Shown here one piece after another: positions 6,085 through 44,360 of a stretch of DNA of 64,000 nucleotides. Source of the stretch: Schmidtea polychroa (Eukaryota); the NCBI GenBank assembly GCA_044892525.1, contig CM097885.1, positions 15,812,001 through 15,876,000 on the forward strand, written 5' to 3'. Position numbers and translations under genes: made by a program. Positions within the stretch are counted from its first letter, which is position 1. Each line of letters starts with the position of its first letter. The notes beneath the pieces were generated by a model. It was not told the origin of the DNA. It searched no databases and saw only the letters and a program-made list of their open reading frames with translations.

Positions 6085-6086
<2 letters not shown>

Positions 6087-6664: not shown

Positions 6665-8170
<1,506 letters not shown>

Positions 8171-8183
8171 TTTCAACCAAATA

Positions 8184-8411: not shown

Positions 8412-8532
8412 TACTATGCAACACCTAAAAATTAACTAAACACATAAAAATAACTAGACACATAACAAACATAAAAATTTACCAAACACATAAAAAGAAC
8501 AAAGTAAAGATATAAAATTTTATTTAATAAAA

Positions 8533-8781
8533 TCAATCTTCGTCAGATAAAATAATGTCATCAATATCAATATCATCTTCACCAACAACTTCTCCAACAT
8601 CTTCTCCAACATCTTCTTCATCAAATTCTTCATCATCTTCTCCAACATTTAATTGACTTAATCTTACATGCCCATATGCTAAACTAGTATTTTTCCCCAC
8701 CCAAACCCTTTTGTCATCTGCGTTAGTTAGTGCTATTTTAGTATTTTTAATTGTATAAATTTGATGGTTTTTGCTTGTTAT
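8533..8781 (-). pseudogene. C-terminal fragment of a Polinton/adintovirus-type protein-primed DNA polymerase B
   Basis: Own translation (not in ORF track): ITSKNHQIYTIKNTKIALTNADDKRVWVGKNTSLAYGHVRL + acidic tail + stop; matches the recalled H-x-IYT...K-x-AL...DDKR...AYGH end of this family. Confidence 0.75.
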
Positions 8782-9506
8782 TTTTTTTGAGGAGTCCAGT
8801 TGTCTTGGAACCGAAATTGGAACCAGTTGTTGATAAATGGGAAATCGATGAATCTAACATTGAACAAATATTGAATGTAACAGATGAATCTAATAAATGG
8901 TTCTCATCAAAAGAAGCCAAAATTCAAAAGAAAAACAAAAGGACAAAAGCTTAAGTAAACAAGTATTAATACTAAAACGTGTAAAAATCCATATAAATTG
9001 ATTAATACAGTAGAACTGTAAAGGAGGAAAAGAAGATAACTCCCATCCCTGAAGCAAAACCACCTGAACAGCCAACAGACAGCAGGTTACTTATCATACC
9101 AAGGGATTCAGTGATAACTGCAACTGGAAAAGAAAATGACAATATATCAAAAGTTAGTTTTAATTTGATTTTTATTTCTCGATATTACATTGTTTATTAT
9201 CCTAATATCAATTAATATCTGTTAATATCGATTGATATTCATTGATATCTATTAATATCCAATAATATCGATTGATATTCATTGATATCTATTAATATCA
9301 ATATCCAATTATTATATATTCTTTTAATTTAATATTTTTAACATTTTTCCTTGGAATCAACATTTATTAATCAATTAAAAAATTATGAATTTATAAAATT
9401 TTTTACATAAAATAATTGATCAATATTTATATAAATTAATTATTTTTATTATTTGATCAATTTTTCATACAAATCAATCATTTTTTATATCAATGATATC
9501 TTGGAT

Positions 9507-9965
9507 CAAGGGTTTGGAACCTGCGGCCCACGGAGCCTTATCGAAATAAATCTTAATTTACAAAAAGAACCATGAATTTTGAGAATTTACAAATGAAAAT
9601 ACTTGTAACTACTGGACTGCATATATCGTACTGTATAAGAATGCCACCGAGTACAAAGAACGAAATATAAAAGTCAATTATTCACATCCATAAATACAAA
9701 ACGTTTGTAGAAGAATAAATAAGATTATTTGTGAAATGATGACTTATTTGCATCAACTTTTCGATTCAGAAATAAAAAACATATTCCAGAATATTTCATA
9801 CAACTGCATTATTCAAATCTGGAGACTGATTATAAACATTGTTTTAATTACTAACTGTATATAAAATGAAATTAATTAATGTTAAAATACTTTTTGACTG
9901 CGGCCCCATTTGGAGGCCACAAATTTCAATGTGGCCTATGGAAATAAAAAGGTTCCCCACCCCTG
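9507..9965. mobile_element. 459-bp hAT (Charlie-like) MITE in an intron (mirror 41178-41636)
   Basis: Ends CAAGGGTTTGGAACCT and AGGTTCCCCACCCCTG; degenerate 8-bp TSD TCTTGGAT/TCTTTGCT. Confidence 0.8.
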
Positions 9966-10272
9966 TCTTTGCTGATGATGTTTGACCTCAGAACAACTTC
10001 TATATAGTAAAATTAATTCATAAAGAATCGATTTAATTTTGAATTTAAAAATTTTTTTTCAGTTTGTAATTTTCCATTCAAATTAATTTATTAAACATTT
10101 TGATCTAAATTGATTGATTTTATAAATGATTCAAATGGAAATTAAATCAATAACAGTTTACAGGAAACAATTGTGCAGAATTATAATCTAGTGCAGTTCA
10201 ATTTAATCCATTTTATTAAACACGGAAAGCGATTTATAACAACAATATATAAATTTGAGATTTAAATATTAA

Positions 10273-10504
10273 CCCTTTCGCCCCTATTGGGACAATACGT
10301 CCCGGAAACTTTCATCATGATCCTACTGGGATATTTTGAATGGTCCATAAAAGCCTATTGGGACTTATTATCCCAGGACTTTCTAGGATATTCAGAAGCG
10401 CCACGATTACAAAAATGAGAATATTTCATATTTAGGTCAATATTAACAAGTTCCAATATATAAATTTAGCATAGTGTCATTAGCGGAAAGTCGGTGCGAA
10501 AGGG
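10273..10504. mobile_element. 232-bp piggyBac-type MITE (mirror 40639-40870)
   Basis: TTAA on both sides; TIR CCCTTTCGC...GCGAAAGGG. Confidence 0.9.
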
Positions 10505-13500
10505 TTAAGTATTAATAAAATAAATCAATAAAAAGGATTTTACCAAAAAGATTGAGCAATTTACCATTTGATCGATTTAAAGAAGGAAATGAAGAAACTC
10601 AAATCTCAATATATATATATATATATATTAATTTGTATTTGAGGTAGAAATTTAAAAATTACGTACTAAGAAAATAAATCAAAAAAAGGATTTTAGCAAA
10701 AATTTTACCATTTGAAGGAAATGAAGAACCTCAAATATGAAAAGCATGTAGAATTTAAAAATTTAATAATTTGTCAATATTTTCACAATTAAATCAATAA
10801 TTATTGAACTGATAATGTAGGAATTTCATAAATTTTGATAATATTGATGGCATAAATTGAATTTTACTTGTATCAATTGCATTTTTAAACCTAAAATTTA
10901 AGACAGTAACTGCTTAAATTTTAAATGATTATTAAATGAGCTTGAGGAGTTATAACTGATCACAATATATTATTTTTTCTTATAACTTTTTTATAATGAT
11001 TGATTTAATAAAAATCATTTATAAAATTAAGTGTCAGATAGGACATCGATTGCATTGAAAAGTGACTATTATTTCCAGGGTCAGAACTATTAATTAATCG
11101 ATCACAGGTGTTACATAAAACCAGAATTCATTTTCTCAATTTCATTATTGAAATTACGTTTGTTCAGGTTAGACCAATAAGAATTGAATTGGAAAATCGA
11201 AAATCTGATTCACCATCAATATGGGGTCCAGTGAAAACCACTCCAACCGCAATTTCCACATCATTTATCCAAATACAGGCGGAAGAAAGTATTAAAATGA
11301 AAAAAGAAAAGAAATCCAATGAGCCGGAAATTCAACCAACGGTAGGAATTTTATACTGACTCCAATAAGAAATTATACTAACACAATAAAATTAATGATT
11401 TATATTATATATTCCATAGTTTGCCCTTACTTTATTACTTATATAACAATTTCTAACAATATCATAAAATGAATTTAATTAACTTTTTGATTGTTGAAAT
11501 AACTAAATATACTAAAATCCTAAAAAGTATGCATATTCCCTTCTATGTAATCACTGAAACCAATCAAGTAAGAGGAGAGGAACAATATACATCAATGATT
11601 ATCTCAGAATACCAGGTGTTGATATAGATTGTTACAATTGAAATGCCCCCATTATTCCATTCCCTATATAAAATATTTATTAAAAAGCCTGAAAATATAT
11701 CGATGTTTTTGATAAATTTACTGATTCATATTCTTCAAGCTCTTCTTTTTATAAATATAATGGAAAATAAATTAGTGGTGAAGTTTGAAAAAAAAAGTTC
11801 TTATTATCCATAAAATCCTTTACTCTGTTCACCTTTTCTCTGTTTTTATTTTTTTAACATTTCACTTATTTTGATTACGATTATAGATCAAAATTTCATT
11901 TATTGCTATTCAACAATAATTTTTGATCTGACGTTGTAATGAAAATAAATGAAATTTTAAAATAATTAAAATTGATTTATATTTAAAATAAATCAATTTT
12001 TTTATTAATAAATTACCCAATAATTTATTATATACAAAAAAAGATTCATTGTACCAAAAATAGGCATTGGAAGGATAATTTATTAATTTGAGTCCATTTC
12101 AATTATTTTCTTATGGTTTTTCAATTTATCATATTTATCTTTAATTTTTTAAAAAATATTATTTTATTGATATTATCTATAAAATCCTTTTCTGTTTTTA
12201 TTTTTTTAACATTTCATTTATTTTGATTACGATTATAGATCAAAATTTCATTTATTGCTAAATAAAATTCATTGAAAATAATTGAAATTTTAAAATAATT
12301 GAAATTGAAAACACAAAAAAGATTAATTGTACCAAAAATAGGCATTGGAAGGATAATTTTTTAATTGGATACTATTTTCTCTTTGGAACAAATACTTTTT
12401 GCCTTGTTGTCGTTTTTATTTTGAAGATAAATCCGTGTCCAGGTGCTATTACAATTATATTTAATCTTAATTCTATGTTTTTTGTTTTATTTTAACATTT
12501 CATTTATTTTCATCACGTCTATTGATCAAAATTAAATCGCTATTTTTCGCTATTCAACACAATAATTTTTAATCTGAATTTGGCAATCTTTTTTGGTGTT
12601 GTGTTAATGACTAGTAAATTAAAATTTCTATATTTGCTTTCTCGTACTTCAGTTACCAATCCCATTTAAATGTAATCTTTGTCGAGTATTTATCATATTT
12701 ATCAAAACTAAATTTTAGCCAATGTAATTATTGATTTATATTATTTCCTATATCACAGTTACTTTCAAATCTGATCAAAATATATATATTCAAGCCTGAT
12801 CTGCACAATATCTGATATTAGAATTGTGTAGATCGATATTTATGTTGGAATTTATGTTTCAATATTTATCCATTACTCGGCATTATCGTTATATTGAAAT
12901 ATTGATTAAACAGTTAAAATACGTAAAATATTGATTATAATAGACTGGCAGATATTGATTAAGTTATAGTTTTTCTTCAATTATTTTCATTTTCTCCAAT
13001 AGGTTGTACGAAATACTTCGCCAAAAGAAACTTGCAAAGTAGAACAGGTAAAGTCAATTTGGAATGCTGCTCCTCAGGCTCAAAAATCACCCAATCAAAT
13101 GGGCACAGAAAATAAATTGTCTGACAGTTCTGTTGTTATGAAAGATTCCGATAAATCAATAAAAGAACAATTACCAACTCTAAAGGAATCTCAGTTAAAA
13201 GTAAAAGTTGATGGAACAGTAAAACCGAAAATAGTAGAAGTAGGTAATAGAAAAAACAAGCAATCAAAATCAACAAATTTGTCTGAATCAAACAAAATTC
13301 CAGTAATCTTGTTATTTACCAACTAGGAACCAATTTCAATTGAATTTATATTTATTAAGTTATTTACTGAAAAGGAAAAATCTATAAAAAATGACATGCC
13401 AGCTTTGATTAAACCTCCGGTAATTGCAACAAAATCTTTGCTGCAAATCCAGGCTGAAGAAACTTTGAAAGAAAAAATAGCAAAAGAGCAACATGAAGTT

Positions 13501-13789
13501 TTAAAAAAATTAGAATTATCAAATGAAGTAATTGATTTTATTTTTTTCATATTATTTAAATTTTGGGCAAAAATTATTGTTATTCTCGCGTGATTCCATG
13601 TGATTGGTCGGGAATTTAAATGCATGTTGAATTCCACGCGTTTCACATAAATTATGGGCAATATCAGGATTTTTCTCTCTGTATTGATTTTAAATTTGCA
13701 CTTTTTATACAGTAATTACTTTAATCCATTAATAGCTCAATAATCCAATAATAACACTAATAATTAAATAATCTAAAAATAACACAAAT

Positions 13790-14395
13790 AATTCATTAAT
13801 GCAATAATAATTCATTATTCCAATAATTATTAATTAATCCAATAATAATTCATTAATCCAATAATTATTCATTAATCCAATAATTATTCATTAATCCAAT
13901 TATTATCCATTAATCATATATTAATTCATTAATCCAATAATAATTCATTAATCCAATAATAATTCATTAATCCAATAATAATTCATTAATCCAATAATAA
14001 TTCATTAATCCAATAATAATTCATTAATCCAATAATTATTAATTAATCCAATAATAATTCATTAATCCAATAATTATTCATTAATCCAATAATTATTAAT
14101 TAATCCAATAATAATTCATTAATCCAATAATTATTCATTAATCCAATAATTATTAATTAATCCAATAATAATTCATTAATCCAATAATTATTCATTAATC
14201 CAATAATAAATCAATAATCCAATAATAATTCATTATTCCAATAATTATTCATTAATCATATATTAATTCATTAATCCAATAATAATTCATTAATCCAATA
14301 ATAATTCATTAATCCAATAATAATTCATTAATCCAATAATAATTCATTAATCCAATAATTATTCAATAATAATTCAATAATAATCCAATAATTAT
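13790..14395 (+). repeat. Intronic 19-bp minisatellite (ATTCATTAATCCAATAATA)n; mirror ~36553-37270
   Basis: Read directly; right copy is 114 bp (6 units) longer by coordinate-sum shift 50949 to 51063. Confidence 0.93.
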
Positions 14396-16308
14396 TCTGT
14401 AATTATAATACAAATCTTTATAATGGAATAATTTAAAGACCAGTCAAAATAAAACTGAAACTCCTTCCACTTGGAAATCAGGACAAACTTTGTCTCAAAA
14501 TGTTTCTCCTGCAGCCAAATCACTTGTAGAAATCCAAGCCGAAGAAGCATTGAAAGCCAAGAAAACTAAAGAAATAGAAAAAGCAATGAAAGTTAATCAA
14601 ATAGAAACGAATAAAGTGACAGTAATGAATTGGAATTGAATAAAATTACAAGAAGATGATGATTTCTGTTCTTGTAGTCATTCAAGGAGTCATTGCTGAA
14701 GCAGACACCCAAACCCGCACAGATCCCAGTTGGCAAATCGATCTGGGATATGATTCCCAGCGATGTTCCTGTACATAATAAGGTGGTGGTGCCAGCCGCG
14801 GTGGTAACGGCCGAGTGCAATTCTAAACCACAGAACCACAAAATAAACGAAGTAAAATGGTTATATATTTATGGGGAATGGAATTGTAATATGAAATAGC
14901 CATCGATCAATCCGGTTCATAGACAGCAGCAACAATAACATCAAGCGCCAGTTGCGTCTAATTATAAGCAAGAAATCGGATCAGTGGATCAGCTGACTAA
15001 ATGGTGCTTGAAAAGGCTCGCTAAATTCTCCGAAGAGTTCGAATTAAATACTGTGATCGAGTTGTTAAAGGAGGTGCCAAATGAGGAGGTAATGGGTGTC
15101 GAGGGGTTGCGATTCGATTTGATTTTGGATTTCCTTCTCTAGGTTATGGAAATGGCTATCCAGTTGCTGGGCGATTCTAAGTTCACCTGCAATTTTGTAT
15201 TGGAATTTATCGCTAAACGCCAGGAGCTTTCTGACTATCAAGCAGTGGACACTTGGCAGGTTAGCTATCGATTTTCACTATTATATCATTTTTATTTAAT
15301 CATATATTTTATTATTATTTGTATTTATTAATTATTAATTTCTATGACATTTTATTATTTTATTTTTGTTAATTTTTTTGTAAGTATTATTTTAAATATT
15401 ATTAGTTTTTATGTATTTTTATTTATCAACTTCATCTAATTATTAAATTTTTGTTAATATTTATTTTTTAATAATATTTTTTATTATTTGATTATTTTTA
15501 TATATTATTTTTAATTTTTATTATATTTTATTTATTATTAATTATTATTATTAAGACTGGAAAAAATAGATTTCATTATTACTTTATTCATTTCATTATT
15601 TAATTAATTATTATTAAAATATATTATTATTAAGACTAAAAATTCCATTATCATTTAATTTTTGTTCGTAATATTTTTAATTAATTATTTTTAATATATT
15701 TTTTTTTCAATTAATTACTATTATTAAGACTGAAAATTTTCAATTCCAATATCTTACTATTATTTAATTTTCTTAAACAATTGTTTTTATTTAATCACAT
15801 TTTATTAATATTTTTTTTAATTATTTTAAATATTATTAGTTTTTATGTATTTTTATTAATATTTTTTATTTTATTATTAATTTTTTATTATTTTTATATA
15901 TTATTTTTAAATTAAAATTTTAATTATATTTTATTAATTATTAATATTAATTTTTTTGTAAATATTATTTTAAATATTATTTATTTATTTTTATTAAGAC
16001 TGAATAATATCAATTATATTCTATTATTTAAATTTTGTTAATATTTTTTTTTAATAATAAAAATTCGATTTTATTATTACTCTACTATTAAAATTTTATT
16101 ATTTAAATTTTTATAATTTTATTAAAATTAATTAATTATTTTTAATATATTTTACATTAATTAATAATCGCTCATAATTATTTTTATTTAATAATATTTT
16201 ATTAATTATTACTATTTATTATTTTAAATATTATTATTTATTTTTCTTATATTTTATTTATTATTTAATTAATTATTATTTTATTATAAAATTAATTAAT
16301 TTTTTTTA

Positions 16309-16349
<41 letters not shown>

Positions 16350-16864
16350 GACATTGAAATAACTACTCCACCACCAGCTGTCAACAATTCAAAAACTAAA
16401 TCTGGTAAGTCCAGATCTAAAAAGAAAATGGTTGTCATCGAAGCGAAATTCAGATGAGGGGCTGCCAGAGAGAATGATATGATATATAATATATAATATA
16501 ATATGATATGTGTTTGTGTGGATTTATTGAAGCCATTTGGCCTGTGATGTATATGTATATATGGTTGTAATGATCTGTGCTTGTAATAACAATTATTATT
16601 ATTATTATTATTATGATGATGATTAGCAACGGTAATAGCAACACATCGGTATCACCCATCACTGGTATGGACAGCAGCGCCTTTTAGCACTGGGATATAT
16701 TTACACCATCATCTAGCAGCGGTACGTGTACATATATATGTATCTATGCTCCTCCCTGGTTACCATGATATTATCATTATTATTAATAATTATATACATT
16801 TTTAATTGAACTAAATAGAATTTTAATATTTTTGATTTGTACTGTTTTTATTGCCCTTTCTATA

Positions 16865-16903
<39 letters not shown>

Positions 16904-17465
16904 CACATTTTGTGTCGGTGATACACAATTCTATTGGATGATGCGATTGGATCTGTACAAATGCCGCGTATATTTTAAACGATTATTTAAGCTTACAATT
17001 TGTAAATAAACGTTTCTTCTGTATTTTTTGATTTTTGTTGGTTTTAGATTTTATTAATGTTTGCTTGACAGTCGCACGAGTTACATGAAACAGACTGTTA
17101 TGTTTATGAAATCAATGTACTTTACAGGAATTAAATAATTAATATGGAGGAGTTACCGATTCTCTGACTTATTCCTATCCGGTTTATTGCCAAAGTTTCA
17201 CGTAAAGCTTTTTGGATTCCTACTACAATACTAGAGTGTAAAATATAGTTTACCTGAAACCTACCAGTACTATTATGATTATTCCCACTTTCATGACTAT
17301 CATCTTTGTATGATTACGATCAGTGTTATTTAGTCGTTCTATTGTGGCTGTGGTTCCGATTTCTATCATAATTGATCTCTGCCATTTATATCTTTATTAT
17401 ATTAATAACATCTATATCGCTATTATAATTGTGATATGTTGAGAAAAATTCCTCTCATCATTAAA

Positions 17466-20150
17466 TAGAGTCGTATATAAAATAGCAATGCTTGCCTGTA
17501 AAGCAAACATTTTTTTGTAAATCGCATTTTTGCTGTCGGGGTTATTAAATTTTGAAAAACCGTGGCGCTCTCATAAGGATCTAAAAATTATATGGCAAAG
17601 TGTGATCTAGGTGTTTTTTTAGATTTTCTAGTTAATATTCCTATTTAAAAACCCTAATTTCCAAGCTAAATGTTACATTTAAGAAACTGTCCTACCAGAT
17701 TGTCGTTGTTTACCATTCTATGCCTCCAATTCTATAATGGAAACAGAGTAACAATAATGTGATAATTCTTAATTTATCTGATTAATAACGTTTAAAAATA
17801 AAGTTCTGATTTCAGCTGAAAAGAGCTAATTGTGTCATATATAGGAATCCTATATTATAGAATGTTGTTTAAATAATGTTTATTTTCTCGCTCTTTCAAT
17901 TCCATTCTCATTACTTTATCAAAAACTTCCAAAATTGGGAGTTCATTTAAACTTATTGTTGGGAGAAGAACACGCTGACATTTCAAATTATATTTTAATA
18001 ACAATGTTTGAATATTTAAACAAACTATCCTAATATTAAAACATTTTATATTTTAATATTTGGATGGCTACATAAACCCCCAACGTAGATTATGGAGTAT
18101 CTTAACTTGAAAATGCGGCTTTTAGTCTGTCAACTGAGACTCTGACTATCTTTGAATTTTGTTCAATTTGATATGTTTTGAAATCTTCACTGCGACTAAT
18201 GACCTTGAAGCGTCCTTCATATATTGGTTGAAGGGAAGACCTTGATTCTTTGACCATCCATACGTGACTGCATGTTTTTAATTCTTTCGGAAAGTATGAC
18301 CTTTCGTTGCATTTGCGTTTCTTCAATTTTTTTAGGACGATGTCACCTGGCATTCTGGAATCGGTTCCAAAAACCGCTTGCATTGGTGATAGACCGGTTT
18401 CTTCTGATGTGACGTTTCTTAAGCCAAGCATAACTGCCGGTATGTCGTTAGCCCAACTTCTATTGGCATTGTCGGAATGTGTTCGAAGAGCTGCTTTTAA
18501 TGTTCTGTGCCATCTTTCGACTTTGCCATTACACTGAGGATGGTATGCAGTTGTATGTCGATGTTCGATGGCATATTTTGAGCACAGCTCCTTGAAAGTT
18601 GATGAGACAAATTGTCTGCCATTGTCAGTAATGACAATTTCTGGCGCTCCATATCGAGGAATCCATTCTTTTTCGAGTATATTAACTATGCTTGAGCTGT
18701 TTATTTCATTTATTGCAAAAGCTTCCGGCCATGAGGAGAATCTGTCAATGATTGTCAAAAGAAACCTTTTGTTGTTGACTGAGGGCAATTGACCTACTAT
18801 GTCAATATGAATTATTTTAAATTTACCTCTGTCTGGTAGTTGTCCTAGTTTTGATTTAGTATGTCTATTTATCTTGTTCTTTTGGCATGATTCGCATTCT
18901 TTACACCATTTACGTATCTGACTTCTCATTTTTGGCCAAACATATTTCTGTTTAATCATTTTGATCGTCGCATTTGCCCCAGGGTGGCACCTGTTATGTA
19001 GACGGTTGAATTCTAGCCGTCTAAAGACTTCGGGTAGAATTATCCTGACGATGTTGTTGTTGACATCAACAAGAACGCCATTTTCAGTTTCCTGTAACTT
19101 CAAAGTCGTTGATTTCAGTGATTTAATAAAGGATTCGTCTTTTTGTTGGATAATTAATTCTGTTAGCTTGATATTATTAACTATGGCTTCTTGAGGTTCT
19201 GTCTCCATTTGTCGCGATAGAAAGTCAGCAACTTGATTGTCTTGACCTCTTATGTGATGAATGTTGAAGTTAAACTGGTAAATGTAGTTGATCCATCGCC
19301 ATTGACGATTTGAAGGGTTTTTCATCGAACTCATGTGAATGAGCGGCTTATGATCAGTTTTTAGACAGAATTCGTTTGATTCCAGGTAGTGCTTAAAATT
19401 TTTAACGGACAGGTAAACTGCAAGCAGCTCTCTGTCAAATGTTGAATATTTTTGTTCTGTTGAGCTGAGTTTCCTTGAGAAAAATGATATTGGTTGAAGG
19501 CTTCCATCGCACCGTTCATGGTTACGCTGACATTTCAAATTATATTTTAATAACAATGTTTGAATATTTAAACAAACTATCCTAATATTAAAACATTTTA
19601 TATTTTAATATTTGGATGGCTACACTTATATCAACAGCAACGAAACGAAAGCGCCAGGTCTAAATTATCGCTATTTGAACCTGGGAATTCTCATTTGCCA
19701 AAGTGGCTCAGCAGACGTTATTTTTGATTCAATGACGAATTTGTTAGACAAGTTTGATGCTTGGAAAAATATTCAAATGATCGTGTGACACGACATCTGT
19801 TAACAAATGGAGTGTAATTCGAATTCAAAGAGAGTTCGAAAGGAAAATATTAGAAAAACCACAGTTTATCGGTTGCCAAAGCCATGTACTTGACCTGATT
19901 ATTCGCCATTTGCTTGATTATTGTGTCCCGACACGTTCGGTCAAGCCCAATATGAACTATAGTTTTATTTAATCCGTTTCCAGCGAATATGAAATTCTTG
20001 AGCGATAATATAGAAGAGAAGAGACACTCACACCGAGTGAAAACCCTGGTTGGAGTGATGACTTCAAATTCCTCTTTGAAATGTGTGAAGCGTATAACTT
20101 TCATCAGTTAAATTTCCCATCTTTAAATGGCAAAAGCTTCCAACTTAGGC
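17466..20150 (+). mobile_element. Decayed hAT-like transposon interrupted by a Gypsy insertion (mirror ~30800-33481)
   Basis: ~19787-19920 translates CDTTSVN...KPQFIGCQSHVLDLIIRHLLD (catalytic D and CxxH); possible terminus TAGAGTCGT at 17466. Confidence 0.55.
17831..19624 (-). mobile_element. Internally deleted Ty3/Gypsy LTR element (RNase H end + integrase)
   Basis: Mirror of 31323-33116; ORF 18102-19556. Confidence 0.9.
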
Positions 20151-20974
20151 TAATAAAACTCTTTCACCCAGAGAGGTACATTTGACAGAATAAATCCAGA
20201 AATTAAGGAAGCAACCGAGAAGAAAACCAAAAGGACTAAATCAGTTTGAGGCAACTTGGCTCTCACCAGATAAGGCCCATACATTACATCAGCGCATCTT
20301 TCACTTAGACTGGACTAGACAGGAAATTGTAACGGAAAGTCTGGCGCAACGGTTAGTAATTAGAAAAAAACATGAGCCGTTGCCCAAGATGTACACGGCA
20401 AAATAATTGGAAGCTCGAATCACACAAGGAGCGGCCTTAATGAACTTAGATGTGATCTTCAGTCATCACTTACCTCCCAGCAGTGGTGTAGTAGAACCTG
20501 TTTAAACAACTCAAGTTCCAACGCCCCAACCAGTTTCCGTAGTACCAGTACCAATAGCGACTCCATCTCCGGCAAATTGAAATCAATACGCAGAGACCCA
20601 CAGACTGCGCCGACAGCGGGCAAATGCCCGATGGCTAGCCGAGTTAGCCGCTATTAATTCTCCAATTAATCCCTCCAATGCCTTCAACAAGTACAACCCA
20701 ATCCACCATCACACTGGCCCAGCAGCCTTATATTTTCTTTAATGCTGATTTAGACGACTCAAATTTCAGACTTGATGTAATTCTGTAACTCTATGGATTC
20801 TTATTAGACTTGTGCAACATCAAAAATTAAATGAATGTTCGTTATAAATGTGTTGTAATTTTCCTTTTTTTAGTTATTATTGTAGTTAGAAAAAAAGATA
20901 TTCTAGGTTACGAAGTTTTGGATATATAGAAGTCAGTTGAGGAGATATACAAGGGAATTAAAGGTTTTCCAGTC

Positions 20975-21880
20975 GTTCTGGCCCAATACTGCAAAGAAAG
21001 CTGTTGTTCGGTTCTTTTTGATGTTGTATTTGTTGCAGAGTATTTTGAACATTTCTGATTCGAACTGTCTGTCTTGATCGGTTATGAATGTTTTCGGTTG
21101 GCCATAACAAGCTATTCAATTTAATTCAATCATTTCACATATATTTTTTGCGGTGATTTCTTCTATTGGGATTACTTCGAACCAGTTGGATTTGCTGTCT
21201 ATAATTGTCAACAGGTATTTGTAGTTGTCTTTTGGTGGTAGTGGTCCTACAATATCTGTGTGTATTGTTTAGAAGACTTCGCTGCTTGGGAAGTTTACTT
21301 TTAGAGGTTTGAGTTTTTTGTTGTTTTGTTTAACTGGCAGCTGTGAACTCTCTTGACGTAGTTTTTGATGTCTTTCCGCATTTTAGGCCATATATAATTG
21401 TTGTTTATTAGTTCGAATGTTACTTTGTTTCCAGAGTGATTAATCTTGTGTATCTTTTCGATGCAGTTTTCGCGGAATTCCTCCTGAAGTAATATTCGTT
21501 TGTTGCTTTTGTTGGAGACGTCGTGCCATACTCCGTTGAGTTCTTGTAGTTTCAAACTGTGTTTAGTGGGAAGTTTGTTAATTGTTTCGTTTTGTTTGGA
21601 TTTAATTTGATCCAATTTGATTATGTTTTCGAATTCCAGGGAGGTTATGTCACTTTCGTTTCTTGGTAGAGCGTCAGCTGCTATGTTTATTTTCCCGCTA
21701 CGTAGTTTATTGTGCAGTTAAATTGTAAAATGAAGTTGAATTGTCTAATTTGACTTGGTGAGGGGTTCTTTATTATGATTGCGTTAGTTAGCGGTTTGTG
21801 ATCTGTGAATATTTTTAAGTTTCGTCCTTCGAATAAATGTTGGAAGTGTTTGATTGCTTTGTGTATTGCTAAGAGTCATC
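20975..21880 (-). mobile_element. Decayed Gypsy pol fragment, RNase H-integrase (mirror ~29055-29960)
   Basis: Frameshifted IFTDHKPL, ADALSR-like, HSG...YIWPKMRKDI, HTDIVGPLP, TDQDRQF segments. Confidence 0.85.
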
Positions 21881-22846
21881 TACTTATTAAGAATTTCCCT
21901 AATATAGATTATCTATATATTTATTCATCTTGTATTTGAGAATTAAAATATTAATTTACAAATTTTATTTTTGACCTCTTAAAGTGCCACTGCTACTAAT
22001 CTCATCCTAAATGTATTAATGTAAATTGTTTTCTTAGAAATGTCTAATTAAAATTTTGAATTTTAAAATTATAATTTCATTTATGCCCCTCAAGTAATAT
22101 GACCATCAATCAAGTACCAAATTCGCTAATGTAAATTACTTTATTATGTATGCTCAACTTACGTTTAATTTAAGATTATAATTTATAAATTTTATAAATA
22201 ACCCCCCCCCCCCCCGCCTTAAACTCCATAACCGTCACTTATCACCACAAGGTATTGATGTAGATTAGGTATTGGACTCAACTTCACTTTAAAACCTCAT
22301 TTATAAATTTCCTAAATGATCCCCTTTTTTATAATTTCAAGATTTCAAGATAAATTTCGTTGTTTGTTAATAAGTAAAATTCAAAGAATTCAATTTGATA
22401 TAACGCGGTGTTAGTATTGCATTTAGGTGCATTTTACTGCCATTCAGTACAGCAATAATTTATCCAAAACTCATATAACATCAGCGGCGGTTTTTTCGTC
22501 AGTTCCACTCGTCATAGGAGCGTTTGATTTGTTGAGGCGATTTGTCAGCGCTTATATTCGGGTGAATTTTAATTTCATTTCTTTCAAATTAATTATTAAT
22601 TTAATTATAATAATTATTCAAATTAATTTATATTAAATGTTTTGATTTAATTAAATTGCTTTTATTTAATTATATAATTGATGTTGATATTGCAATTGGC
22701 AATTTGCTGTGAGCGCTCCGCCAAGTGATGATGATATCGGATGGAAGGCGAGAATGACAATAATTACCACAATAATTATCTCATATAATAAATATAATAA
22801 AAAATGCAAACAATAAAACAAATCAAAAGCCAAAATAAATCAATTT

Positions 22847-24472
22847 TTATTGATTTGTTTTAATTTGTAAGAATTTTTCAATTCTGCACCTGAGCAGCAA
22901 TTTATCACTTTTGGCTGCTAATTTATAGATTGAGCTGACATTATAATACTCATAATAAATGCCAATTGGATCATTTCTGTCTTGTGACGGTTTCCTCCAT
23001 CCGGCATCAAGAGGGCGATCTGAATATTTCATAAACTTGCTCATATAAATGTTGCCATTTTCTGGATCGATCACATCGATTGTCACGGATTGATTGAACG
23101 GCCAATCCAATTGCTCATCATTTGCCCCACGCATCAAACAGAAACCAACATTAACCCAATTAAATATCCCAAACAAATTACCACTAGTCCCCACCCACAA
23201 GCACATTTTGTAACCGATTGGCCCGGAATAAAATGCCTCGCTGTAAATAATTTCATTTCTCTTTTCTTGTGAAAATTTATCGATTTGCCATTCAAAAAAT
23301 CCATAATTTATATATTTTTCATTTGCTAATTTTGTTTCATTCTGCCGAATTTCATTGGCGCTTTTCGCCATTTCAAGCTGCGACTGAATCTCAAATTCAA
23401 ACATTTCAATAAATCAATAAATCACCTTTTCATTCCCCTGTTGCAACCGCTGCTCGTATTTCTCTTTCATCTCATCAATTTGATGTTGATATTTTGATTC
23501 ATTCTGCCGAATTTCATTGACATATTTCGCCATTTCAAGCTGCGACTGAATCTCAAATTCAAACATTTCAATAAATCAATAAATCACCTTTTCATTCCCC
23601 TGTTGCAACTGCTGCTCGTATTTCTCTTTCGTCTCATCAATTTGCTGTTGACATTTTGTTTCATTCTGCCGAATTTGAGCTGCCATGAGCATCAAGATAA
23701 TAATTAAAAATGCCAATTGAATTATTTCTCTCATTTGAGGCGATTCAATCGCCTCAATTTGCAGTCTGACCTGCTTTGCGTCAATAACAAATCAATAGTA
23801 AATCAAACCAATAATCAAACTTGACTGATTGATCCAATATTTGTCTCCATTCTCAATGAGCGGTTCGCATTCTTCAATGCCACCATTTCCTCATTCAATT
23901 CTTCTATTTCTCCTTTGTTCTCCGCCTCTTTCCTTTCAATATTGCTCTGTTTCACCTACAATCACAAATATCAATAAAATTAATTACAAATAAAATTTTA
24001 CATTGATATTGATAATTTCATTACGCAATGTCACATTCTCATCTCTCATTGCTTGCATCTCATTGCATATATTACTGATCTGATCAATCAATAATTTGCT
24101 ATAGCCTTCAGCGTTCTTGGTGCATGTACTCATGTGGCTTTCCATCACTTCTAATTCATCTTTGAATTGACAATTTTGCATTGGGCATCTCACTATCACT
24201 TCTGAAATCCTTAAATTGGCTGCATGATCTTCAGAAACATCCTTAATAAAATTTATCATTTTCTTTCTACAATGTTTTGCTGCTCCTGGACAGAATTTAT
24301 CTTTTCCATCCAAATAATGTTCAATGCAATCAGAACAAAAGCGACAACCGCAAGGAGCATTGCAAGCTTTTATCATTAAACACTTGCAAATTCTGCATAT
24401 CAATTCAATGCTGATTTCATTATCAAATTCAAATTTATTCCTCTTCATCATTTCCCATACGATTGCAAACAT
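22847..24472 (-). CDS. TRAF-like protein (RING, Zn finger, coiled coil, MATH), apparently intact, ~477 aa
   Basis: Predicted exons 24472-24002, 23955-23821, 23770-23588, 23539-23426, 23377-22847; phase-0 GT-AG introns of 46-50 nt; no internal stop. RING CRIC...PCGCRFCSDC...CP; MATH SEAFYSGPIGYKMCL and MRGANDEQLDWPF. Confidence 0.88.
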
Positions 24473-25258
24473 TTTATCTAAAATTAACAATATTATCAAA
24501 ATATTTCAACATTTTACAACAATCATAAATCATACTTATTATATTAATTATTTCCTCTGACGTTGACAATTTCAATATTTATAATGTGTATTTTGATGTA
24601 GATAAACAAACATTTTATAAATATTGTTTTTTAACTTTTAGCGCAAATCAAAATATTATTATTATTATATTATTAATTTTTTTCTCATTTATTTTAAATA
24701 TTACAAAATTATTTAAATTATAATTTTATAACATTTTATTGTGACATAGTTGCAATGATAAAACATCAAATGCACAAAGCAATATTGATAAATTGGATTA
24801 GATTTAACACAATAAAAAATTAAATTGTAACGAATATTTGTATAATTTTATGAAATCTGTGATCAATGCAATGCCTAATTGACACTTAATTTTAATTGAT
24901 TCTATCAAATTGTAGTTCACTGTGCTAGTGAATGTCCTGGAGAGTGTATGTTTTGATAGATGTACATAAATATGGCACAGAAATCGGTCACAGCAGATTC
25001 AGCAAAAAATCAAACATTTGTTTTAAATTTTTAATATTAATCCAATTAATGGACACCATTGAGCAATTGTCAGGACCATTCTGATGTCATTCAACAGTAG
25101 TCGTGGTCATCTTTCATTGTTTTTTGTTATTTCATCGAACGCATTGATACATTGTGACGTGACTTATTAGGAATTTGATTTTATCCTTTCTAGATCCTCA
25201 ATTTGAAGGTGTGGAAATTTGTACACAGACAAGATCCTACACTGACATATCAGATGGC

Positions 25259-25427
25259 CATTGAAAGCTTGGTCAGACCGCGTGCCAATACTCATGCTCA
25301 TTGCGGAAAATCCAGTCAAATCGCCTTCATTGCCCTCATAAACATTACACAAATGCACTCAGTCTGGGACACATTTCTCGCTATCCGTTCTGAGTAAGCA
25401 TCCGTTTGTACAGCTCCTTTCATGCAT
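25259..25427. other. Palindrome spacer (~169 bp)
   Basis: CAGATGGC ends at 25258 and its complement GCCATCTG starts at 25428. The sequence between is not self-complementary and recurs at ~54968-55137. Confidence 0.92.
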
Positions 25428-26214
25428 GCCATCTGATATGTCAGTGTATGATCTTGTCTGTGTACAAATTTCCACACCTTCAAATTGAGGATCTAGAAAG
25501 GATAAAATCAAATTCCTAATAAGTCACGTCACAATGTATCAATGCGTTCGATGAAATAACAAAAAACAATGAAAGATGACCACGACTACTGTTGAATGAC
25601 ATCAGAATGGTCCTGACAATTGCTCAATGGTGTCCATTAATTGGATTAATATTAAAAAATATAAAACAAATGTTTGATTTTTTGCTGAATCTGCTGTGAC
25701 CGATTTCTGTGCCATATTTATGTACATCTATCAAAACATACACTCTCCAGGACATTCACTAGCACAGTGAACTACAATTTGATAGAATCAATTAAAATTA
25801 AGTGTCAATTAGGCATTGCATTGATCACAGATTTCATAAAATTATACAAATATTCGTTACAATTTAATTTTTTATTGTGTTAAATCTAATCCAATTTATC
25901 AATATTGCTTTGTGCATTTGATGTTTTATCATTGCAACTATGTCACAATAAAATGTTATAAAATTATAATTTAAATAATTTTGTAATATTTAAAATAAAT
26001 GAGAAAAAAATTAATAATATAATAATAATAATATTTTGATTTGCGCTAAAAGTTAAAAAACAATATTTATAAAATGTTTGTTTATCTACATCAAAATACA
26101 CATTATAAATATTGAAATTGTCAACGTCAGAGGAAATAATTAATATAATAAGTATGATTTATGATTGTTGTAAAATGTTGAAATATTTTGATAATATTGT
26201 TAATTTTAGATAAA

Positions 26215-28098
26215 ATGTTTGCAATCGTATGGGAAATGATGAAGAGGAATAAATTTGAATTTGATAATGAAATCAGCATTGAATTGATATGCAGAATTTG
26301 CAAGTGTTTAATGATAAAAGCTTGCAATGCTCCTTGCGGTTGTCGCTTTTGTTCTGATTGCATTGAACATTATTTGGATGGAAAAGATAAATTCTGTCCA
26401 GGAGATGCAAAACATTGTAGAAAGAAAATGATAAATTTTATTAAGGATGTTTCTGAAGATCATGCAGCCAATTTAAGGATTTCAGAAGTGATAGTGAGAT
26501 GCCCAATGCAAAATTGTCAATTCAAAGATGAATTAGAAGTGATGGAAAGCCACATGAGTACATGCACCAAGAACGCTGAAGGCTATAGCAAATTATTGAT
26601 TGATCAGATCAGTAATATATGCAATGAGATGCAAGCAATGAGAGATGAGAATGTGACATTGCGTAATGAAATTATCAATATCAATGTAAAATTTTATTTG
26701 TAATTAATTTTATTGATATTTGTGATTGTAGGTGAAACAGAGCAATATTGAAAGGAAAGAGGCGGAGAACAAAGGAGAAATAGAAGAATTGAATGAGGAA
26801 ATGGTGGCATTGAAGAATGCGAACCGCTCATTGAGAATGGATATGGAGACAAATATTGGATCAATCAATCAAGTTTGATTATTGGTTTGATTTACTATTG
26901 ATTTGTTATTGACGCAAAGCAGGTCAGACAGCAAATTGAGGCGATTGAATGAAAATGTCAACAGCAAATTGATGAGATGAGAGAGAAATGCGAACAGCGG
27001 CTGCAACAAGGGGATGAAAAGGTGATTTATATATTTATTGAAATATTTGATTTTGAGATTCAGTTGCAGCTTGAAATGGCGAAATGCGCCAATGATATAC
27101 GGCAGAATGAATCAAAATATCAACATCAAATTGATGAGTTGAAAGAGAAATGCGAGCAACGTTTGCAACAGGTCAGACTGCAAATTGAGGCGATTGAATC
27201 GCCTCAAATGAGAGAAATAATTCAATTGGCATTTTTAATTATTATCTTGATGCTCATGGCAGCTCAAATTCGGCAGAATGAAACAAAATGTCAACTGCAA
27301 ATTGATGAGACGAAAGAGAAATACGAGCAGCAGTTGCAACAGGGGAATGAAAAGGTGATTTATTGATTTATTGAAATGTTTGAATTTGAGATTCAGTCGC
27401 AGCTTGAAATGGCGAAATATGTCAATGAAATTCGGCAGAATGAATCAAAATATCAACATCAAATTGATGAGATGAAAGAGAAATACGAGCAGCGGTTGCA
27501 ACAGGGGAATGAAAAGGTGATTTATTGATTTATTGAAATGTTTGAATTTGAGATTCAGTCGCAGCTTGAAATGGCGAAAAGCGCCAATGAAATTCGGCAG
27601 AATGAAACAAAATTAGCAAATGAAAAATATATAAATTATGGATTTTTTGAATGGCAAATCGATAAATTTTCACAAGAAAAGAGAAATGAAATTATTTACA
27701 GCGAGGCATTTTATTCCGGGCCAATCGGTTACAAAATGTGCTTGTGGGTGGGGACTAGTGGTGATTTGTTTGGGATTTTTAATTGGGTTAATGTTGGTTT
27801 CTGTTTGATGCGTGGGGCAAATGATGAGCAATTGGATTGGCCGTTCAATCAATCCGTGACAATCGATGTGATCGATCCAGAAAATGGCAACATTTATATG
27901 AGCAAGTTTATGAAATATTCAGATCGCCCTCTTGATGCCGGATGGAGGAAACCGTCACAAGACAGAAATGATCCAATTGGCATTTATTATGAGTATTATG
28001 ATGTCAGCTCAATCTATAAATTAGCAGCCAAAAGTGATAAATTGCTGCTCAGGTGCAGAATTGAAAAATTCTTACAAATTAAAAAAACAAATCAATAA
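26215..28098 (+). CDS. TRAF-like protein, right-arm copy; extra exon with in-frame TGA (truncated/pseudogene unless the exon is skipped)
   Basis: Predicted exons 26215-26685, 26732-26872, 26923-27021 (TGA 26950-26952), 27070-27354, 27403-27516, 27565-28098. Confidence 0.8.
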
Positions 28099-31000
28099 AA
28101 ATTGATTTATTTTGGCTTTTGATTTGTTTTATTGTTTGCATTTTTTATTATATTTATTATATGAGATAATTATTGTGGTAATTATTGTCATTCTCGCCTT
28201 CCATCCGATATCATCATCACTTGGCGGAGCGCTCACAGCAAATTGCCAATTGCAATATCAACATCAATTATATAATTAAATAAAAGCAATTTAATTAAAT
28301 CAAAACATTTAATATAAATTTGAATAATTATTATAATTAAATTAATAATTAATTTGAAAGAAATGAAATTAAAATTCACCCGAATATAAGCGCTGACAAA
28401 TCGCCTCAACAAATCAAACGCTCCTATGACGAGTGGAACTGACGAAAAAACCGCCGCTGATGTTATATGAGTTTTGGATAAATTATTGCTGTACTGAATG
28501 GCAGTAAAATGCACCTAAATGCAATACTAACACCGCGTTATATCAAATTGAATTCTTTGAATTTTACTTATTAACAAACAACGAAATTTATCTTGAAATC
28601 TTGAAATTATAAAAAAGGGGATCATTTAGGAAATTTATAAATGAGGTTTTAAAGTGAAGTTGAGTCCAATACCTAATCTACATCAATACCTTGTGGTGAT
28701 AAGTGACGGTTATGGAGTTTAAGGCGGGGGGGTATTTATAAAATTTATAAATTATAATCTTAAATTAAACGTAAGTTGAGCATACATAATAAAGTAATTT
28801 ACATTAGCGAATTTGGTACTTGATTGATGGTCATATTACTTGAGGGGCATAAATGAAATTATAATTTTAAAATTCAAAATTTTAATTAGACATTTCTAAG
28901 AAAACAATTTACATTAATACATTTAGGATGAGATTAGTAGCAGTGGCACTTTAAGAGGTCAAAAATAAAATTTGTAAATTAATATTTTAATTCTCAAATA
29001 CAAGATGAATAAATATATAGATAATCTATATTAGGGAAATTCTTAATAAGTAGATGACTCTTAGCAATACACAAAGCAATCAAACACTTCCAACATTTAT
29101 TCGAAGGACGAAACTTAAAAATATTCACAGATCACAAACCGCTAACTAACGCAATCATAATAAAGAACCCCTCACCAAGTCAAATTAGACAATTCAACTT
29201 CATTTTACAATTTAACTGCACAATAAACTACGTAGCGGGAAAATAAACATAGCAGCTGACGCTCTATCAAGAAACGAAAGTGACATAAACTCCCTGGAAT
29301 TCGAAAACATAATCAAATTGGATCAAATTAAATCCAAACAAAACGAAACAATTAACAAACTTCCCACTAAACACAGTTTGAAACTACAAGAACTCAACGG
29401 AGTATGGCACGACGTCTCCAACAAAAGCAACAAACGAATATTACTTCAGGAGGAATTCCGTGAAAACTGCATCGAAAAGATACACAAGATTAATCACTCT
29501 GGAAACAAAGTAACATTCGAACTAATAAACAACAATTATATATGGCCTAAAATGCGGAAAGACATCAAAAACTACGTCAAGAGAGTTCACAGCTGCCAGT
29601 TAAATAAAACAACAAAAAACTCAAACCTCTAAAAGTAAACTTCCCAAGCAGCGAAGTCTTCTAAACAATACACACAGATATTGTAGGACCACTACCACCA
29701 AAAGACAACTACAAATACCTGTTGACAATTATAGACAGCAAATCCAACTGGTTCGAAGTAATCCCAATAGAAGAAATCACCGCAAAAAATATATGTGAAA
29801 TGATCGAATTAAATTGAATAGCTTGTTATGGCCAACCGAAAACATTCATAACCGATCAAGACAGACAGTTCGAATCAGAAATGTTCAAAATACTCTGCAA
29901 CAAATACAACATCAAAAAGAACCGAACAACAGCTTTCTTTGCAGTATTGGGCCAGAACGACTGGAAAACCTTTAATTCCCTTGTATATCTCCTCAACTGA
30001 CTTCTATATATCCAAAACTTCGTAACCTAGAATATCTTTTTTTCTAACTACAATAATAACTAAAAAAAGGAAAATTACAACACATTTATAACGAACATTC
30101 ATTTAATTTTTGATGTTGCACAAGTCTAATAAGGATCCATAGAGTTACAGAATTACATCAAGTCTGAAATTTGAGTCGTCTAAATCAGCATTAAATAATA
30201 AATCAGCATTAAAATATAAGGCTGCTGGGCCAGTGTGATGGTGGATTGGGTTGTACTTGTTGAAGGCATTGGAGGGATTAATTGGAGAATTAATAGCGGC
30301 TAACTCGGCTAGCCATCGGGCATTTGCCCGCTGTCGGCGCAGTCTGTGGGTCTCTGCGTATTGATTTCAATTTGCCGGAGATGGAGTCGCTATTGGTACT
30401 GGTACTACGGAAACTGGTTGGGGCGTTGGAACTTGAGTTGTTTAAACAGGTTCTACTACACCACTGCTGGGAGGTAAGTGATGACTGAAGATCACATCTA
30501 AGTTCATTAAGGCCGCTCCTTGTGTGATTCGAGCTTCCAATTATTTTGCCGTGTACATCTTGGGCAACGGCTCATGTTTTTTTCTAATTACTAACCGTTG
30601 CGCCAGACTTTCCGTTACAATTTCCTGTCTAGTCCAGTCTAAGTGAAAGATGCGCTGATGTAATGTATGGGCCTTATCTGGTGAGAGCCAAGTTGCCTCA
30701 AACTGATTTAGTCCTTTTGGTTTTCTTCTCGGTTGCTTCCTTAATTTCTGGATTTATTCTGTCAAATGTACCTCTCTGGGTGAAAGAGTTTTATTAGCCT
30801 AAGTTGGAAGCTTTTGCCATTTAAAGATGGGAAATTTAACTGATGAAAGTTATACGCTTCACACATTTCAAAGAGGAATTTGAAGTCATCACTCCAACCA
30901 GGGTTTTCACTCGGTGTGAGTGTCTCTTCTCTTCTATATTATCGCTCAAGAATTTCATATTCGCTGGAAACGGATTAAATAAAACTATAGTTCATATTGG

Positions 31001-31322
31001 GCTTGACCGAACGTGTCGGGACACAATAATCAAGCAAATGGCGAATAATCAGGTCAAGTACATGGCTTTGGCAACCGATAAACTGTGGTTTTTCTAATAT
31101 TTTCCTTTCGAACTCTCTTTGAATTCGAATTACACTCCATTTGTTAACAGATGTCGTGTCACACGATCATTTGAATATTTTTCCAAGCATCAAACTTGTC
31201 TAACAAATTCGTCATTGAATCAAAAATAACGTCTGCTGAGCCACTTTGGCAAATGAGAATTCCCAGGTTCAAATAGCGATAATTTAGACCTGGCGCTTTC
31301 GTTTCGTTGCTGTTGATATAAG

Positions 31323-33116
31323 TGTAGCCATCCAAATATTAAAATATAAAATGTTTTAATATTAGGATAGTTTGTTTAAATATTCAAACATTGTTATTAA
31401 AATATAATTTGAAATGTCAGCGTAACCATGAACGGTGCGATGGAAGCCTTCAACCAATATCATTTTTCTCAAGGAAACTCAGCTCAACAGAACAAAAATA
31501 TTCAACATTTGACAGAGAGCTGCTTGCAGTTTACCTGTCCGTTAAAAATTTTAAGCACTACCTGGAATCAAACGAATTCTGTCTAAAAACTGATCATAAG
31601 CCGCTCATTCACATGAGTTCGATGAAAAACCCTTCAAATCGTCAATGGCGATGGATCAACTACATTTACCAGTTTAACTTCAACATTCATCACATAAGAG
31701 GTCAAGACAATCAAGTTGCTGACTTTCTATCGCGACAAATGGAGACAGAACCTCAAGAAGCCATAGTTAATAATATCAAGCTAACAGAATTAATTATCCA
31801 ACAAAAAGACGAATCCTTTATTAAATCACTGAAATCAACGACTTTGAAGTTACAGGAAACTGAAAATGGCGTTCTTGTTGATGTCAACAACAACATCGTC
31901 AGGATAATTCTACCCGAAGTCTTTAGACGGCTAGAATTCAACCGTCTACATAACAGGTGCCACCCTGGGGCAAATGCGACGATCAAAATGATTAAACAGA
32001 AATATGTTTGGCCAAAAATGAGAAGTCAGATACGTAAATGGTGTAAAGAATGCGAATCATGCCAAAAGAACAAGATAAATAGACATACTAAATCAAAACT
32101 AGGACAACTACCAGACAGAGGTAAATTTAAAATAATTCATATTGACATAGTAGGTCAATTGCCCTCAGTCAACAACAAAAGGTTTCTTTTGACAATCATT
32201 GACAGATTCTCCTCATGGCCGGAAGCTTTTGCAATAAATGAAATAAACAGCTCAAGCATAGTTAATATACTCGAAAAAGAATGGATTCCTCGATATGGAG
32301 CGCCAGAAATTGTCATTACTGACAATGGCAGACAATTTGTCTCATCAACTTTCAAGGAGCTGTGCTCAAAATATGCCATCGAACATCGACATACAACTGC
32401 ATACCATCCTCAGTGTAATGGCAAAGTCGAAAGATGGCACAGAACATTAAAAGCAGCTCTTCGAACACATTCCGACAATGCCAATAGAAGTTGGGCTAAC
32501 GACATACCGGCAGTTATGCTTGGCTTAAGAAACGTCACATCAGAAGAAACCGGTCTATCACCAATGCAAGTGGTTTTTGGAACCGATTCCAGAATGCCAG
32601 GTGACATCGTACTAAAAAAATTGAAGAAACGCAAATGCAACGAAAGGTCATACTTTCCGAAAGAATTAAAAACATGCAGTCACGTATGGATGGTCAAAGA
32701 ATCAAGGTCTTCCCTTCAACCAATATATGAAGGACGCTTCAAGGTCATTAGTCGCAGTGAAGATTTCAAAACATATCAAATTGAACAAAATTCAAAGATA
32801 GTCAGAGTCTCAGTTGACAGACTAAAAGCCGCATTTTCAAGTTAAGATACTCCATAATCTACGTTGGGGGTTTATGTAGCCATCCAAATATTAAAATATA
32901 AAATGTTTTAATATTAGGATAGTTTGTTTAAATATTCAAACATTGTTATTAAAATATAATTTGAAATGTCAGCGTGTTCTTCTCCCAACAATAAGTTTAA
33001 ATGAACTCCCAATTTTGGAAGTTTTTGATAAAGTAATGAGAATGGAATTGAAAGAGCGAGAAAATAAACATTATTTAAACAACATTCTATAATATAGGAT
33101 TCCTATATATGACACA
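31323..33116 (+). mobile_element. Internally deleted Ty3/Gypsy LTR element
   Basis: Direct repeat starting TGTAGCC at 31323 and 32875 (~101 bp shared); G-rich tract before the 3' LTR; probable TSD ATAAG/ATTAG. ORF 31391-32845 has YSTFDRELLA and TDHKPL (RNase H), HHCC finger, and HIDIVG/TDNG/VERWHR (DDE). Confidence 0.9.
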
Positions 33117-34491
33117 ATTAGCTCTTTTCAGCTGAAATCAGAACTTTATTTTTAAACGTTATTAATCAGATAAATTAAGAATTATCACATTATTGTTACT
33201 CTGTTTCCATTATAGAATTGGAGGCATAGAATGGTAAACAACGACAATCTGGTAGGACAGTTTCTTAAATGTAACATTTAGCTTGGAAATTAGGGTTTTT
33301 AAATAGGAATATTAACTAGAAAATCTAAAAAAACACCTAGATCACACTTTGCCATATAATTTTTAGATCCTTATGAGAGCGCCACGGTTTTTCAAAATTT
33401 AATAACCCCGACAGCAAAAATGCGATTTACAAAAAAATGTTTGCTTTACAGGCAAGCATTGCTATTTTATATACGACTCTATTTAATGATGAGAGCAATT
33501 ATCTCAACATATCACAATTATAATAGCGATATAGATGTTATTAATATAATAAAGATATAAATGGCAGAGATCAATTATGATATAAATCGGAACCACAGCC
33601 ACAATAGAACGACTAAATAACACTGATCGTAATCATACAAAGATGATAGTCATGAAAGTGGGAATAATCATAATAGTACTGGTAGGTTTCAGGTAAACTA
33701 TATTTTACACTCTAGTATTGTAGTAGGAATCCAAAAAGCTTTACGTGAAACTTTGGCAATAAACCGGATAGGAATAAGTCAGAGAATCGGTAACTCCTCC
33801 ATATTAATTATTTAATTCCTGTAAAGTACATTGATTTCATAAACATAACAGTCTGTTTCATGTAACTCGTGCGACTGTCAAGCAAACATTAATAAAATCT
33901 AAAACCAACAAAAATCAAAAAATACAGAAGAAACGTTTATTTACAAATTGTAAGCTTAAATAATCGTTTAAAATATACGCGGCATTTGTACAGATCCAAT
34001 CGCATCATCCAATAGAATTGTGTATCACCGACACAAAATGTGATAATAATAATAATAATAATATATAGAAAGGGCAATAAAAACAGTACAAATCAAAAAT
34101 ATTAAAATTCTATTTAGTTCAATTAAAAATGTATATAATTATTAATAATAATGATAATATCATGGTAACCAGGGAGGAGCATAGATACATATATATGTAC
34201 ACGTACCGCTGCTAGATGATGGTGTAAATATATCCCAGTGCTAAAAGGCGCTGCTGTCCATACCAGTGAGGGGTGATACCGATGTGTTGCTATTACCGTT
34301 GCTAATCATCATCATCATCATCATAATAATAATAATAGTTATTACAAGCACAGATCATTACAACCATATATACATATACATCACAGGCCAAATGGCTTCA
34401 ATAAATCCACACAAACACATATCATATTATATTATATATTATATATCATATCATTCTCTCTGGCAGCCCCTCATCTGAATTTCGCTTCGAT

Positions 34492-42353
<7,862 letters not shown>

Positions 42354-42361
42354 CAAAAAAA

Positions 42362-42972: not shown

Positions 42973-44360
<1,388 letters not shown>

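Follow-up and report, generated by a model that had tools for sequence, protein, structure and literature searches.

An interrupted 40-kb palindrome carrying a TRAF-like gene in Schmidtea polychroa, and its possible origin by fold-back and deletion

The window that we analysed is a 64,000-nucleotide stretch of Schmidtea polychroa DNA (assembly GCA_044892525.1, contig CM097885.1, forward-strand positions 15,812,001 to 15,876,000); it is AT-rich (~30% GC) and rich in repeats. It begins with a non-LTR retrotransposon ORF at 1-2985, which carries RT and zinc-binding domains, is open at the window start and is followed by a (TTA)152 run, and it also holds hAT and LTR-retrotransposon remnants. Comparing the window with itself by BLAST reveals a long inverted repeat, 5379-25258 against 25428-45734, with a copy of a TRAF-like gene in each arm. 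The main elements are the following.

5379..25258: left arm of the palindrome, ~19.9 kb (self-BLAST, arm alignment)
25259..25427: single-copy spacer of 169 bp, a piece of a decayed minus-strand reading frame, continuous with the right arm
25428..45734: right arm of the palindrome, ~20.3 kb (arm alignment)
22847..24505, minus strand: left-arm copy of the TRAF-like gene, its repeat region 249 bp shorter
26182..28098, plus strand: right-arm copy of the TRAF-like gene, with a RING-like part (26182-26703), coiled-coil repeats and a MATH domain (27529-28098)

The coiled-coil region of the TRAF-like gene contains 162-bp tandem units (26946-27613), each with an in-frame stop; the short stop-bearing stretch in each unit may be a mini-intron. 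In the four sequencing runs described below, contig depth over the RING-like exon (26182-26915) is ~20 to several hundred times the depth over the spacer, hinting at a very large TRAF-like family, with the proviso that summed contig depth is not a copy number.

With tandem arrays set aside, 46 of 17,270 aligned columns (0.27%) distinguish the arms, 24 of them transitions and 22 transversions. The differences make up 41 events whose clustering is not significant (KS P 0.16). Indels also separate the arms, for example one of 249 bp at 26920 in the TRAF repeat region. The first arm-to-arm substitution lies 21 bp from the spacer, and further differences follow at ~230, 980, 1410 and 1440 bp. Tight multi-base clusters occur among the differences at 26405-6, 33496-33501, 38584-38590, 38966-38968 and 43954-5. 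Eight substitutions can be polarised with a paralog elsewhere in the window (see below), three being derived on the right arm and five on the left (P 0.73), so that neither arm shows an excess of derived changes. The locus thus has the long, near-identical inverted arms and the single-copy spacer of an interrupted palindrome, and the divergence of the arms is low and two-sided. We consider it very probable that this is a real, young inverted segmental duplication of a known kind.

The history of the centre can be read from two further copies of inner-arm sequence, which lie to the right of the palindrome.

54926..55213, minus strand: paralog of the centre, a decayed frame matching residues 130-225 of the protein P0122, unbroken through both spacer ends
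54965..58832, plus strand: older paralog of the spacer and inner right arm (25257-29934), oriented like spacer plus right arm, with large indels
63545..64000, plus strand: second inner-arm paralog (25957-26393), the start of another TRAF-like gene, oriented as the right arm and running past the window end

Self-BLAST aligns 25257-25494 with 54965-55203 in the same orientation (95.8%, 239 bp, E 1e-106), and this agrees with the earlier observation that at the paralog the spacer leads directly into right-arm sequence. Over six arm blocks, the older paralog differs from the arms by 156 substitutions in 2,507 columns. With the paralog's minus-strand frame as query, a full HMMER search gave two hits. 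One of these, P0123, has a weak PAS-kinase match and was dismissed; the other, P0122, is a public protein of 280 aa with a partial RasGEF match. The P0122 alignment is uninterrupted across 55213-54926 (72% of 96 aa, E 6e-42), and on the left-arm side of the palindrome its match ends at residue 155, which is position 25259. Neither Pfam nor PDB gave a match to the centre frame or to the frames that lie right of 45734. As the P0122 alignment is unbroken through both spacer ends, the DNA preceding the paralog is the original continuation, and not unrelated DNA as the sequence-only reading had it. The boundary between spacer and right arm is crossed by the paralog, by P0122 and by contig 25 of run X5, which spans 25325-25516. 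All three therefore support, at the level of sequence, the view already taken in that reading, namely that spacer plus right arm is the old continuity and that the join between left arm and spacer is new. Since both paralogs face like spacer plus right arm, the left arm is the odd one out.

Two side observations concern the same region. The spacer is nearer to the paralog (4 of 169 columns differ) than the arms are, a post hoc comparison with a Fisher P of 0.04; this closeness could be due to chance, to constraint, or to a repair of the centre that used another copy. Recent copying of the spacer from the in-window paralog was rejected, as the two differ at those four columns and by one indel. 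In addition, ~380-390 bp of the paralog (55204-55586) are absent from both arms at 25495-25516, and a contig of run X10 continues beyond 25516 with the paralog's extra sequence. This deletion is, to judge from the sequences compared, older than the palindrome.

The two outer ends and the centre of the palindrome are described by the following features.

25257..25258, plus strand: apparent new centre join, GC, 2 bp of exact microhomology in a ~25-bp imperfect inverted repeat
3446..5596, plus strand: DNA-transposase-like ORF, continuous across 5379
45072..45734, minus strand: mirror copy of the element's 3' end, identical to 5379-6042 bar a 1-bp deletion
45723..45735, plus strand: outer join of the right arm, with the transposase copy cut mid-ORF and no flanking repeat common to the left end
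45735..54925: DNA right of the cut, with an ATPase-like remnant (48395-48715) and a proteasome-alpha pseudogene (53853-54400)

At the centre join the exact microhomology is GC, at 25257-25258 and 25428-25429, and 6.6% of random pairs reach 2 bp. A tiny imperfect homology, GCCAT versus inverted GGCAT, had been proposed here: weak pairing is indeed present, but its exact part is 2 bp and the proposed pair lies one base off register with respect to the product. Against 4,000 random pairs, the anchored pairing score is 8 inside the spacer (reached by 5.9%) and 6 outside it (15.8%), and the summed score is reached by 3.1%; the scoring was of our own choosing and post hoc, and the ~25-bp inverted repeat was measured in the paralog. 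Folding of the paralog centre is no better than that of shuffled sequences (z 0.35).

On the left, the transposase-like ORF matches residues 45-756 of P0002, a relative of 756 aa, at 98.7%. It was blank in Pfam, and we take it to be a hAT-type transposase. That the left arm runs into an intact transposase is thus right as to the continuity through 5379, but the ORF is without the 44 N-terminal codons, and P0002 residues 1-44 have no match anywhere in the window. On the right, the copy is cut mid-gene at 45734 just as had been noted, with only the 3' part of the ORF in the right arm. The transposon homology common to the two arms is 663 bp long and contains no substitution and one 1-bp deletion, 11 bp from the cut, which the P0002 frame assigns to the right arm; the chance of a small indel so near the cut is ~1%. 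The element's terminal motif lies at 6036/45072, ~660 bp inside the arm ends, and the join cuts the ORF. Alternative transposition is expected to leave a transposon end at a join, and a duplication driven by transposon ends fails as an explanation because there is no transposon end at this one.

The DNA right of 45734 looks local, as judged from its sequence, because the two paralogs of the inner arm end lie within 18 kb of the cut. In the 60 bases right of the cut we found no local template of 14 bp, and searches for further copies of three sequences (the right-of-cut DNA, the ATPase-like remnant, the transposase end) gave no confirmed locus. The window's tandem repeat list contains no telomere-like array. 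This part of the window also contains small units in which an (ATT)n run is combined with an 83-bp hairpin (46246-46328, 46479-46561) and which are tandemly doubled (46190-46761, 48173-48396), with a rearranged copy at 48211-48373. The proteasome-alpha copy at 53853-54400 is frameshifted, shows no intron and stands beside the RasGEF-like relic at 54926-55213.

Some frames in and beside the arms have a Polinton look. The plus-strand frame at 48395-48715 is packaging-ATPase-like, with Polinton/A32-type look-alikes, and serves as a lead only; 8533-8853 (minus) and 42290-42610 (plus), inside the arms, are presumably polymerase-end-like, a label to which searches gave no support for 42290-42610. 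All three are possible Polinton remnants. Polinton elements have AGT/ACT-type termini and a 6-bp target duplication, and neither end of the palindrome has a terminal AGT/ACT run or a flanking duplication; a Polinton-derived palindrome was rejected on these grounds. The locus resembles such palindromes in its Polinton-like remnants and differs from them in arms that carry a TRAF-like gene and unrelated transposon debris.

Seventeen sequencing runs are listed for 23700-28600, none of them an RNA run, and four of these (X1, X2, X5 and X10, from three studies) were compared over 25140-26915 at the level of contigs. At 25468 the contigs of all four runs carry a letter found in neither arm, and so do the three runs with cover at 25555, 25557 and 25593; at 25449 and 26405-6 every one of the four runs has the left-arm letter in its contigs. 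Among the contig pieces and joints listed, none bridges 25258|25259, and since contigs drop rare variants this is silent on the presence of the join. One row of run X1 passes from 25375 to 25257 with five letters between that resemble the paralog flank; it is ambiguous and is given no weight here.

The sequence-only reading had argued that a single fold-back should leave both new junctions on the same arm, that a second event was therefore needed, and that this was either an inter-arm crossover flipping the centre or the breakage and repair of a longer palindrome, as in a breakage-fusion-bridge cycle. We enumerated single switch-and-return events on an ancestor of the form flank, arm, spacer, continuation, downstream. 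An intrastrand fold-back alone does give the other order, as argued. However, the observed order is produced once, by an event of type 3-1-2-4, in which copying exits at the arm|spacer boundary, resumes at the spacer's far end on the other strand, copies back to the arm start and returns downstream. A second event is accordingly plausible and not required. The enumeration also yields the observed order from a fold-back product that is symmetric after replication and is then cut on the old-arm side, and likewise from a flip; taken together, we give these two proposed routes roughly even odds. A strict breakage-fusion-bridge cycle, which would lose distal DNA and be healed by a telomere, a translocation or a further fusion, is disfavoured and forms a minor part of the route that ends in a cut, because the DNA beyond 45734 looks local. 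A simple fold-back would leave the spacer joined to the old, untruncated arm; here it runs on into the truncated right arm, a state that a fold-back reaches only after a later cut or a flip. As in a 3-1-2-4 event, the spacer is also in the opposite orientation to the arm whose old outer flank is preserved.

Our tentative preference, held at somewhat less than even strength, is for a fold-back that made the left arm, followed by a separate deletion at 45734; this weight, like those given to the other routes, is our judgement and no computed posterior. The strand reading from right arm into spacer (the window's minus strand) would have broken or stalled at the spacer's far end, folded back at the weak inverted repeat 169 bp behind and recopied the arm. 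The left arm would then be the new copy, and the palindrome would once have extended further out than now, until a later, unrelated deletion-type join at 45734 took away the outer stretch of the right arm, the old one. In a variant, the 45734 cut would be older and the return join of the left arm would be hidden in the 663 bp of transposon homology; against this variant, that stretch is without substitution, and two separate transposon copies need not match so well. Which arm is new, the priming geometry and the timing of the cut are all points that we infer.

What speaks for fold-back and deletion is that both paralogs face like the right arm, that pairing is slightly stronger inside the spacer, the side a primer at the spacer end would use (a post hoc point), that the left transposon copy is itself truncated, and that large indels are frequent here. 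Relative to the paralog there are six events of at least 90 bp per 156 substitutions, from which 1.8 are expected between the arms, and the probability of at least one inter-arm event of at least 1.8 kb is P 0.45. Speaking against this sequence of events are its two steps where the 3-1-2-4 switch takes one, the size of the deletion, which must have been at least 5.4 kb because nothing in 1-5400 matches 45735-64000 in the window self-comparison, the need for that deletion to lie on the old arm, the weakness of the inside/outside pairing difference together with the failure of the paralog centre to fold better than shuffles, and the derived substitutions, which mark neither arm as new.

The one-step explanation, a single inter-strand template switch of type 3-1-2-4 on the FoSTeS/MMBIR scale, is unlikely but deserves weight. 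It makes the left arm the old one and dispenses with a second event: the nascent strand would have come off its template at 25258, switched to the opposite strand 169 bp further on, copied spacer and arm in reverse over 20.5 kb and rejoined at 45735, with deletion of the intervening DNA, so that both new joins flank one block, 25257-45734. It is the sole single switch-and-return solution of our enumeration, and it agrees with the local look of the DNA right of the cut. The 1-bp deletion near the outer join would suit an error-prone join, although it is compatible with any mutagenic one. Its geometry, termed 'inverted repeat with inverted spacer', makes up 0.26 of gold-standard short events (PMC7954356), and copy loss with a nearby inverted duplication is common in tumours (PMC7025897); yet the frequencies in print describe events tens of bases long and not 20 kb. 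Furthermore, the side that the switch would use as primer has only the 2 bp of exact and some weak imperfect pairing, and the ancestral copy would have to face opposite to both neighbouring paralogs.

That last difficulty is shared by the flip, in which a fold-back of type 3-2-1-4 that ended at 45734 would have produced the right arm before a crossover between the arms inverted the centre. We rate this route as rather improbable. It yields the observed order in the enumeration, uses the pairing inside the spacer, starts from the commonest short event (3-2-1-4, 0.49; PMC7954356) and invokes arm crossovers of a kind known in natural palindromes (PMC3723533), but in that same study crossovers are far rarer than conversions (3 versus 56), and here the arm differences are spread, with no clear homogenised tracts among the 41 events, and no molecule carrying the centre the other way round was seen. 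An assembly artefact, with a fold-back read joining two alleles head to head so that the 'arms' are haplotypes, is more doubtful still. Fold-back reads are a known long-read artefact (PMC12870357) and a divergence of 0.27% would be compatible with alleles. Such a read gives identical halves, however, whereas the arms differ from 21 bp off the spacer onward and by the 249-bp indel, and they agree with each other at 25468, 25555, 25557 and 25593, where a different letter stands at full depth in the contigs. Summed over five X2 contigs, 6 of 674 letters depart from the right arm, exceeding the divergence between the arms, and the join falls in a pre-existing weak inverted repeat whose total score few random pairs reach.

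Among published systems, the palindrome works like a template-switch or fold-back inverted duplication, in the class of interrupted palindromes. The 3-1-2-4 type was defined in the four-point model (PMC5453318) and accounts for 26% of short great-ape template-switch events (PMC7954356); the locus shares its order of old flank, arm, inverted spacer, inverted arm and downstream DNA, and differs in a block of 20.5 kb where the great-ape events measure tens of bases. Fold-backs with a single-copy spacer arise where short inverted sequences occur, and 13 human joins have inverted microhomology of 2-8 bp (PMC3907307); in yeast their products are stabilised or healed through repeats (PMC10622511). 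The locus shares the single-copy spacer and has 2 bp of inverted microhomology and an imperfect central inverted repeat, at levels that a few per cent of random pairs also reach, but the far end of those products is a telomere, a translocation or a ring, while here it seems to rejoin local DNA, and the spacer runs on into the truncated arm, as a fold-back would give only if the old arm was then cut or the centre flipped. Among tumour variants with two joins, the pairing of a loss with an inverted duplication close by is a common class (472 instances; PMC7025897). Such local two-jump variants likewise have two joins on one chromosome and an inverted duplication beside a loss; they are somatic, whereas the present one has apparently been inherited through 46 arm substitutions and its loss is inferred. 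ODIRA also joins at a short interrupted inverted repeat, with a preferred spacing of 40-80 bp in yeast (PMC10766183; PMC10766186), and secondary rearrangement of the palindrome arms is expected (PMC10766186; PMC10766183). An ODIRA triplication fails here, since the window holds one fold-back join and two near-identical copies instead of two joins and three copies, at a spacing of 169 bp. Natural palindromes can invert, as shown by three inversions among 83 phased chromosomes for human palindrome P6 (PMC3723533). Literature listings on planarian TRAF clusters and on large invertebrate palindromes contained nothing on this locus, and we make no claim that it is unpublished.

The geometry of the palindrome is already in print and, as it stands, of little consequence; the inverted duplication most likely arose by accident during replication or repair and has no function as such. 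A far bolder proposal would have near-perfect 20-kb arms around a 169-bp spacer tolerated over long times, both centre orientations present among individuals, and snap-back copying, as proposed for palindromic Polinton derivatives, acting on ordinary DNA to double TRAF-like genes head to head and so feed their expansion; we regard this as very improbable. What the locus does offer is a centre whose polarity is fixed by a paralog and by an outside protein, P0122. According to PMC10766186, long interrupted palindromes are unstable and seldom found in natural genomes, and this one has been kept long enough for 46 arm substitutions despite that instability. In the process, the duplication has doubled a TRAF-like gene of a many-copy family.
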